Positions 41,205 to 41,544 of a DNA stretch of 64,000 nt are shown here, one piece after another. Source of the DNA: a virus; IMG/VR virus record IMGVR_UViG_3300027782_000072, positions 9,275 through 73,274 of that record. One strand, given 5' to 3'. The position numbers were made by a program, and so were the translations under genes. Position 1 is the first letter of the stretch. Each line of letters begins with the position of its first letter. The notes below the pieces were generated by a model that had not been told where the DNA came from, did no database searches, and saw only the letters and a list, made by a program, of their open reading frames with translations.

Positions 41205-41410
41205 CAAAAGAAAAGGAGGGCTTACGCCCTCCTCGTCTTTATCACCCTCCGATAGCATTGCTCCTCAACAAAGGGGAAAGGGCCCAAACAGGCACCACAA
41301 CAGCCCGGTCAATCCTTACGGAATAGACCACCCTCTCCATACTGTCCATCCTTGCGGGCTCCGAGCGTGGGGGCTGTAGAGCGAAGCCGAAGCTTCAGGA
41401 CCGAGTGACT
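41205..41410 (-). ncRNA. putative structured ncRNA (~200 nt)
   Basis: Extended -10 TGGTATGAT, cUUCGg, GCAA and GUAA tetraloop hairpins, and a terminal GUAA hairpin with a U-tract. No convincing ORF. Confidence 0.6.
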
Positions 41411-41544
41411 TGCAAATCATACCATGCCATTGCCGCTTAGCCCCAGGCTTAGGCAGTGTTCGGTTAACCGCCCTTTAAATCGTGTTAGCCTTTTCTTGCT
41501 GGTCAGGCGACTGTCAGCCCAAACTGACATTCTTCTTTTTTCTT

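Follow-up and report, generated by a model that had tools for sequence, protein, structure and literature searches.

A new family of structured non-coding RNA in S-CBS4-like cyanophages

The virus record IMGVR_UViG_3300027782_000072 of IMG/VR contains, between two genes that run on its plus strand, a gap whose minus strand carries a series of potential hairpins, and the question raised by this locus is whether the gap holds an RNA gene and, if it does, what such an RNA might do for the phage. The stretch analysed here (the window, 64,000 bases) comprises bases 9275–73274 of a record of 73,274 bases, and all positions given below for the locus are those of the window. A preliminary description, made from the letters of the window, had proposed that the gap encodes an unannotated structured RNA of about 200 nucleotides (nt) on the minus strand, the flanking genes being on the other one, and all the strings that it quoted are indeed present on that strand where it had placed them. 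The proposal is borne out by the covariation of the helices and by a conserved promoter and terminator. We conclude that the element, here called RNA1, is almost certainly an independent gene, located on the minus strand at about 41411–41205, whose product is a non-coding RNA of about 205 nt, and that it represents a real and well-supported new family of structured RNA of phages. The RNA1 stretch is present in a single copy in the 73,274-base record and lies opposite the surrounding genes. The phage itself is a relative of the cultured Synechococcus phage S-CBS4, its primase/helicase being 57% identical over the full length to S-CBS4 gp082 (next-best matches below 28%).

Folding of the single sequence was uninformative, since the z-scores of the minus and the plus strand (−2.06 and −2.18, respectively) do not allow the strands to be separated by folding energy, and a comparative test was therefore needed. 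Searching 50,697 phage records by blastn with the RNA1 locus gave no match, the copy from a related locus (L049) likewise gave none, and the S-CBS4 copy matched S-CBS4 alone. Because the family is too divergent for blastn, sequence patterns and a covariance model were required. A search with the DPBB protein encoded next to RNA1 identified 38 viral loci, in some of which blastn and nhmmer located the RNA1 stretch ahead of the DPBB gene; a first pattern, derived from the alignment of these loci, matched 13 viral, 26 metagenome and 5 bacterial-genome stretches, four of the metagenome matches being discarded by eye as coding-looking chance matches. The covariance model (R1), built from 29 sequences, finds RNA1 in 17 of the 38 DPBB loci. 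The remaining 21 belong to other phage types and lack RNA1; the DNA upstream of the DPBB gene was inspected in 17 of these 21 and held nothing similar. In S-CBS4 the model scores a minus-strand copy of RNA1 at 64498–64735 with 77.2 bits; the copy falls between gp092 and gp093 ('lipoprotein precursor'), in a stretch left blank in the GenBank annotation. A second, looser viral pattern yielded at least 118 stretches, from which 79 new loci were scored by the model; among the matches listed, 28 of the 79 proved to be RNA1 members, and the other 51 were rejected as coding-looking chance matches, 35 distinct ones having been inspected. The final alignment (A4) contains 52 distinct members from viral and metagenome contigs, and frequencies among members given below refer to this set. 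A host counterpart was looked for in 185,579 species genomes with a single strict pattern; the scan returned five stretches, all of them chance matches that score at most 15 bits and match model positions 18–66 only. As far as seen, RNA1 is confined to S-CBS4-like cyanophages.

The evidence for a common fold comes from compensatory change. In a MAFFT alignment that was not fitted to the structure (A2), 89.6% of the cells are paired, compared with at most 52.4% when the partners are slid, and double changes occur in 35 of 56 pairs. The 52-member alignment, with 60 pairs including those of the helix P9 described below, gave 92.3% against at most 50.7%, with double changes in 49 of the 60 pairs; in both alignments, none of 500 shuffles attained the observed values. 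The same counts bear on the view that the stretch is not an RNA gene at all, being either protein-coding, by way of a plus-strand open reading frame (ORF) of 75 amino acids that overlaps RNA1 (41152–41379), or a site that acts at the level of DNA. Half of the members do have some open frame on the opposite strand (26 of 52, against 15.6 expected from shuffles). However, no frame is conserved on either strand, the phase of the open frames relative to the conserved anchors is not constant (22/11/4 and 15/18/4 across the three frames), and their occurrence is largely explained by A-poor composition. In addition, the lengths of the members differ by non-multiples of three (16/13/23 in the three classes), and the ORF belongs to no Pfam family. 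Whether coding or DNA-level, this view is already refuted by the covariation counts and we regard it as scarcely credible.

Three junctions, one four-way and two three-way, organize the comparative structure, which is described here from 5' to 3' on the minus strand. P1 is followed by a single G, the Pa domain (P2, P3 and P4, the last of the form CC-GNRA-GG), a second single G and the P9 domain (P5 with P6, P7 and the joining strand J7/5, and then P8), after which come (Y)AUCGGA, the 3' strand of P1, a purine-rich linker and the terminator. P1 brings the two ends of RNA1 together by pairing GUCACUC (41409–41403) with GGGUGAU (41247–41241), and its seven pairs are 99% paired, six of them with double changes; the Pa and P9 domains branch from a single three-way junction. 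Pa, formed by GUCC (41401–41398) and GGAC (41347–41344), closes the domain of the four-way junction (41344–41401) and is 100% paired, one pair changing from C-G to U-A in eight sequences. Within this domain lie P2 (GAAGC-UUCG-GCUUC, 41396–41383), which has a UUCG loop and is 81% paired, P3 (41382–41358), which is 98% paired, and P4 (CC-GCAA-GG, 41357–41350), which is invariant in all 52 members.

P9 (GUAU, 41342–41339, with AUGC, 41258–41255) had not been drawn in the preliminary description and emerged from a scan of the 52-member alignment for mutual information, followed by row-by-row reading; the scan also recovered the helices that had been drawn. It is a helix of 4–6 base pairs (bp) that joins the strand after Pa to the strand before AUCGGA, with double changes in all four pairs and 91.2% of the cells paired, and because P9 is absent from model R1 the alignment cannot have been fitted towards it. 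The domain that it closes contains P5 (41338–41330 with 41283–41275; nine pairs, 99.6% paired, eight double-changed), which encloses the rest of a P5 domain spanning 41275–41338: P6 (GGUC..UCC-GUAA-GGA..GACC, 41329–41307) has a GUAA loop, is 89–99% paired and shows double changes in seven of seven pairs, P7 (GGGC/GCCU, 41306–41290) is 98.6% paired with all four pairs double-changed, and J7/5 (41289–41284) is GNRA-like. The P8 hairpin (41263–41274), which ranges in length from about 12 nt to over 55 nt across the members, is 78% paired, with double changes in all six pairs. The joining strand J9/1 (AUCGGA, 41248–41253), part of the P1/Pa/P9 three-way junction, does not vary in any of the 52 members. 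There are about 30 invariant letters, grouped at junctions: those of UcGGUcCU, GCUU, CCG..AGG.UG.AC and AUCGGA gather around two places, the junction of P1, Pa and P9 and the four-way junction of Pa, and nearly all of the invariant letters (UCGGUCCU, GCUU, CCG-NN-AGG-N-UG-N-AC and AUCGGA) lie at or beside the three-way junction.

Five of the six structural features quoted in the preliminary description, namely P1, P2, P4, P6 and the terminator, are present far above chance across the relatives and are kept by compensatory changes. The sixth, a long-range ACAGCCC/GGGCUGU stem, is a chance pairing confined to the window sequence and has been abandoned, because ACAGCCC is a window-specific insertion in the P3 loop and GGGC is the 5' strand of P7. 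A candidate pseudoknot between UGG of the P7 loop and CC after P5 was also rejected, one clade-wide change being its sole support and the register not being held.

The ends of the gene are marked by signals that read on the minus strand. The extended −10 box TGGTATGAT (41424–41416), already picked out in the preliminary description, has the form TGnTAnnnT and an unchanged position in all 52 members, and transcription would start at about 41411–41409; a consensus promoter scan found no −35/−10 pair for RNA1. At the other end, a consensus terminator scan matched the intrinsic terminator GAGGAGGGC-GUAA-GCCCUCC followed by UUUUCUUUUG (41205–41234), a hairpin and U-tract also pointed out previously, with a stem at 41234–41213 of nine pairs (six G-C) and a T-rich tail. 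The terminator hairpin is 83–85% paired across the members, and a 3' U-run is detected by regular expression in 49 of 52, two of the three misses being rows shortened by the model. Several pairs of the alignment are mostly G-U or U-G (columns 10–316, GU in 32 sequences; 15–306, UG in 39; 51–77, UG in 34). The strand of RNA1 is minus because of the promoter, the terminator and these pairs, which would be mismatches on the other strand. Host RNA polymerase would transcribe RNA1 from the extended −10 promoter, with transcription ending at the intrinsic terminator.

RNA1 has no entry in RNA databases, and the GenBank record of S-CBS4 does not annotate it. At gathering thresholds, Rfam release 15 gives for the window only the abiF motif and a transfer RNA (tRNA) near 54.3 kb, and scans by E-value (E up to 10; the window locus, L049 and S-CBS4) gave terminator-driven matches only, the best scoring 26.7 bits against a gathering score of 50. 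The preliminary description could not assign a family and had proposed the Infernal comparison with Rfam, and its judgement stands, since none of the three members tested reaches an Rfam threshold. ARAGORN does not recognize RNA1 as a tRNA or transfer-messenger RNA. Within the passages covered of the literature on S-CBS4, on structured RNAs of cyanophages and cyanosiphoviruses and on transcriptomes of Synechococcus sp. CB0101, no description of RNA1 was found; the passages seen of a catalogue of more than ten thousand candidate structured RNAs from IMG/VR do not name the family, although its supplementary tables may list RNA1 (PMC10690425), and the passages seen of a report on Rfam-based RNAs of another CB0101 phage contain nothing on it (PMC9964418).

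By analogy with 6S RNA (RF00013; SsaA/Yfr7 in cyanobacteria), RNA1 could act as a decoy of host RNA polymerase, which would be a special case of the protein-binding role discussed below: its length (about 200 nt), the pairing of its 5' with its 3' end and its housekeeping-type promoter are all 6S-like, and in both cases sequestration of a host protein is the candidate activity. The RF00013 model, however, has no match in the virus record, whereas control matches were obtained in five genomes including that of Synechococcus elongatus, and the fold of RNA1 is multi-branched rather than a rod with a central bubble. We therefore rate a 6S-like decoy as very improbable.

Of the genes around RNA1, that encoding the DPBB/RlpA-like protein (Pfam PF03330, E = 9.3e-25; listed at 41482–41910, plus strand) is its divergent neighbour in 28 of 28 loci analysed and the sole invariant one; the product is a secreted-looking, RlpA-like lipoprotein. 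The other side of the gap is flanked by the gene for a 123-amino-acid protein of no known family (40687–41058, plus strand). Judged from its signal-peptide-like N-terminus, the DPBB protein probably starts at the GTG at 41545 rather than at the listed GTG at 41482. An extended −10 box TGTTAGCCT can be read from the sequence at 41483–41491 on the plus strand, and the terminator scan marks a hairpin at 41512–41529 in the resulting leader. With this promoter and the proposed start at 41545, the RNA1 and DPBB transcripts would not overlap. That arrangement bears on a role for RNA1 as a small regulatory RNA that pairs with host or phage mRNAs, a role suggested by its own promoter and Rho-independent terminator, as in classical RNAs of this kind. 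No overlap with the divergent DPBB transcript would be available for such pairing, nearly the whole of RNA1 is engaged in covarying helices and the longest invariant unpaired stretch is the 6 nt of AUCGGA, and we consider regulation by base pairing improbable.

The region beyond the 3' end of RNA1 is more variable. A gene for a small acidic protein of the S-CBS4 gp092 type ('DPRN'; motif YDPRNE.DYD..EYGTEPIPGD.TW, of no Pfam or PHROG family) is found there in 42 of 51 related loci. It lies on the same strand as RNA1, starting 20–90 nt past the terminator, in 21 of the 51 and is convergent in another 21, so that a single-gene inversion separates the clades; examples are S-CBS4 gp092 itself (L084, 9246–9455) and genes at 2380–2580 in L009 and 754–1029 in L049. 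In nine of the 51 loci the gene was not found, three of these having 85 bases or fewer of downstream DNA. Nor was it found in the window, where the best tblastn match has E = 0.089 and no credible same-strand ORF follows RNA1, a 61-amino-acid frame there crossing a terminator and overlapping the convergent gene.

The window contains instead a second small RNA gene, RNA2, which is separate from RNA1 and has its own −10 box and terminator (41169–41074, minus strand; unit 41074–41180). It occurs in the window and in 16 of the 51 related loci, never in those with a same-strand small acidic gene, and starts about 36–40 nt past the RNA1 terminator. Its −10 box, TACAGT (41180–41175, minus strand), has the form TAnnnT at a constant distance before RNA2. 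The RNA has a conserved 5' end, GGUAUGGAnGGCA, a first hairpin whose length varies by non-multiples of three, a conserved central hairpin GA(A/G)GC-A(A/C)UCA-GC(U/C)UC that covaries (A-U to G-C at two positions) and a bidirectional terminator (41102–41083, minus strand); no Rfam family was found for it. Just past the RNA1 terminator there is, in addition, a conserved motif, often in two tandem copies (41181–41203 in the window, about 2575–2630 in L009), which has the form CTATACA-N4-6-CAGCCGGA or similar in relatives and reads CTATTACTGGCCGGATCC in the window. It could be an operator or promoter element of the downstream unit.

Such an arrangement might suggest that RNA1 is a cis-acting 5' leader, akin to a riboswitch or an attenuator, whose terminator would be read through in a controlled way, into the small acidic gene in the S-CBS4 clade or into RNA2 in the clade of the window. 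The same-strand genes at 20–90 nt and RNA2 at 36–40 nt from the terminator are placed as this would require. However, RNA1 keeps its fold in full where the small acidic gene lies on the other strand, and does so too in at least six loci that have sufficient DNA and lack it; the window has no such gene, and the TAnnnT box at constant distance gives RNA2 a potential promoter of its own. There is also no conserved antiterminator, the best partner of the 5' strand of the terminator differing in position among members, and in members such as L012 and L047 nothing but a second terminator follows. We consider control in cis quite unlikely. RNA1 and its full fold are equally conserved in the same-strand, opposite-strand and gene-less groups, and persistence of the fold in every arrangement of neighbours argues for a role in trans and against a cis-only leader.

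Our working hypothesis, which we hold tentatively, is that RNA1 acts in trans and that a protein binds to its invariant junction. RNA1 would act in trans rather than on a cis gene, the invariant face of the junction would be a specific docking site for a host or phage protein, and the RNA would be either a ribonucleoprotein subunit or a decoy by which a host factor is sequestered in the course of infection. The variable arms, namely P3, P8 and the P5–P7 stems, would merely keep the core in shape. A protein-binding core is suggested because conservation is located in junction strands and in P4, a 2-bp GNRA-capped stub that would hardly be stable alone. Most stand-alone structured RNAs of bacteria and phages of this size whose function is known act with a protein, as do 6S RNA, SRP RNA, Y RNA, pRNA and guide RNAs. 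Several observations weigh against the hypothesis. No recognizable RNA-binding or RNA-dependent enzyme (reverse transcriptase, Cas, TnpB, Ro or RtcB) was found by Pfam in the phage genes scanned, the sole invariant neighbour encodes a secreted-looking DPBB/RlpA-like lipoprotein, an unlikely partner for an RNA, and a host homologue has been excluded only as far as the strict pattern scan reaches. Moreover, a self-contained tertiary fold would account just as well for the several GNRA loops and the conserved strands at the junctions.

This last point leads to the main rival, that RNA1 has no dedicated protein and works by its own tertiary fold, as a ribozyme, a small-molecule binder or a homo-oligomer. 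Assembly into RNA homo-oligomers has been reported for ROOL, GOLLD and raiA. The presence of three junctions, of GNRA loops on P4 (52 of 52) and, in most members, on P6 and P3, of the GNRA-like J7/5 and of about 30 invariant letters grouped at junctions would all be in keeping with it, and the P7 loop carries a self-complementary word (CAUG mostly, CUAG in one clade) that could make loop–loop contacts. That word is short and clade-distributed, however, and is missing in several members including the window (UUGUGGU); no ribozyme or riboswitch model of Rfam matches RNA1, and the mutual-information scan contained no covarying loop–loop or loop–receptor pairs beyond P9. A self-contained fold thus appears to us a minor possibility, if a serious one.

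The preliminary description drew attention to an 'RNA-guided candidate' 0.6 kb away. The gene in question is an ORF of 387 amino acids (41936–43099, plus strand; no Pfam or PHROG family), of which RNA1 would be the guide or scaffold RNA, and its distance of about 0.5 kb from RNA1 is what speaks for the idea. The ORF is absent from five of five other RNA1 records, including S-CBS4 and the two near-complete closest relatives, and is not among the conserved neighbours of RNA1, so that its proximity is irrelevant. It is encoded on the other strand, separated from RNA1 by the DPBB gene and a terminator, and among the ORFs scanned none matched a TnpB, IscB, Cas or transposase family of Pfam; the guide RNA idea is close to refuted. 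A plus-strand terminator-like hairpin (41938–41961) overlies the listed start of this ORF, and the real start is therefore probably farther downstream.

Elsewhere the phage, a siphovirus type of 73 kb, has an ordinary large-terminase gene, which is distant from RNA1. ARAGORN finds a single tRNA gene, tRNA-Met (54385–54452), about 13 kb from RNA1, and Rfam places the abiF RNA motif (RF03085, 55.7 bits) immediately ahead of it (54344–54452 for the two); passages of a published report record this motif in S-CREM1, another CB0101 phage (PMC9964418). The gene at 38298–38990 matches the PHROG family 'Rnase E', which is also the product name of its S-CBS4 counterpart gp086; Pfam gives a weak LuxR/GerE-type helix-turn-helix only (E = 4.3e-05), and the product looks more like a DNA-binding regulator than Rnase E. 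Cumulative GC skew has a maximum near 40 kb and declines to 50 kb, genes being on the plus strand throughout 40001–50000, and a GC-rich island (GC 0.655, AT skew −0.30) occupies 48001–50000. The idea of an origin of replication at the skew peak was given no weight, as the peak coincides with a compositional island.

Among phage-linked RNAs, comparison can be made with GOLLD, ROOL, raiA and OLE, orphan non-coding RNAs of complex fold that comparative genomics brought to light and of which several are associated with phages or prophages. Like these, RNA1 is non-coding, carried by phages and independently folding, with several junctions, GNRA loops and strong covariation; unlike them, it is much smaller (about 205 nt), matches none of their Rfam models, has its own promoter and terminator and a fixed DPBB neighbour, and is so far found in S-CBS4-like cyanophages only. 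The stable RNAs C and D of T4 (species 1 and 2) are small structured RNAs of a lytic phage that are processed from the transcript of a tRNA cluster. RNA1 shares with them its small size, structure and phage origin, but is a separate transcription unit far from the only tRNA gene. The phi29 pRNA, a phage RNA with an Rfam family of its own, is similar in size, is closed by a helix between its 5' and 3' ends, branches at a central three-way junction and is a core gene of its phage group. RNA1 resembles it in size, closing helix, junction and place in the core gene set, but has no Rfam match and lies far from the large-terminase gene. A covarying loop pair of the pRNA type was not found by mutual information in columns at least 80% occupied, variable-length loops not being alignable.

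It is tempting to speculate further that RNA1 is a core functional RNA of this cyanophage lineage with an activity new to phage RNAs, either as a catalytic or ligand-sensing fold or as a ribonucleoprotein subunit for the takeover of picocyanobacteria, and that RNA1, RNA2 and the small acidic gene form a three-part module whose order is rearranged but which is kept together, although we find so far-reaching a reading rather doubtful. Picocyanobacteria rank among the major primary producers, little is understood of the siphoviruses that infect them, and RNA1 is carried by every S-CBS4-like phage testable here. The model of 60 pairs and the three-way-junction core of about 30 letters point to precise mutations, and the complexity of the family makes it a good target for structure determination and for Rfam. 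With S-CBS4 and Synechococcus sp. CB0101 available as a cultured pair, the function of RNA1 is directly testable.

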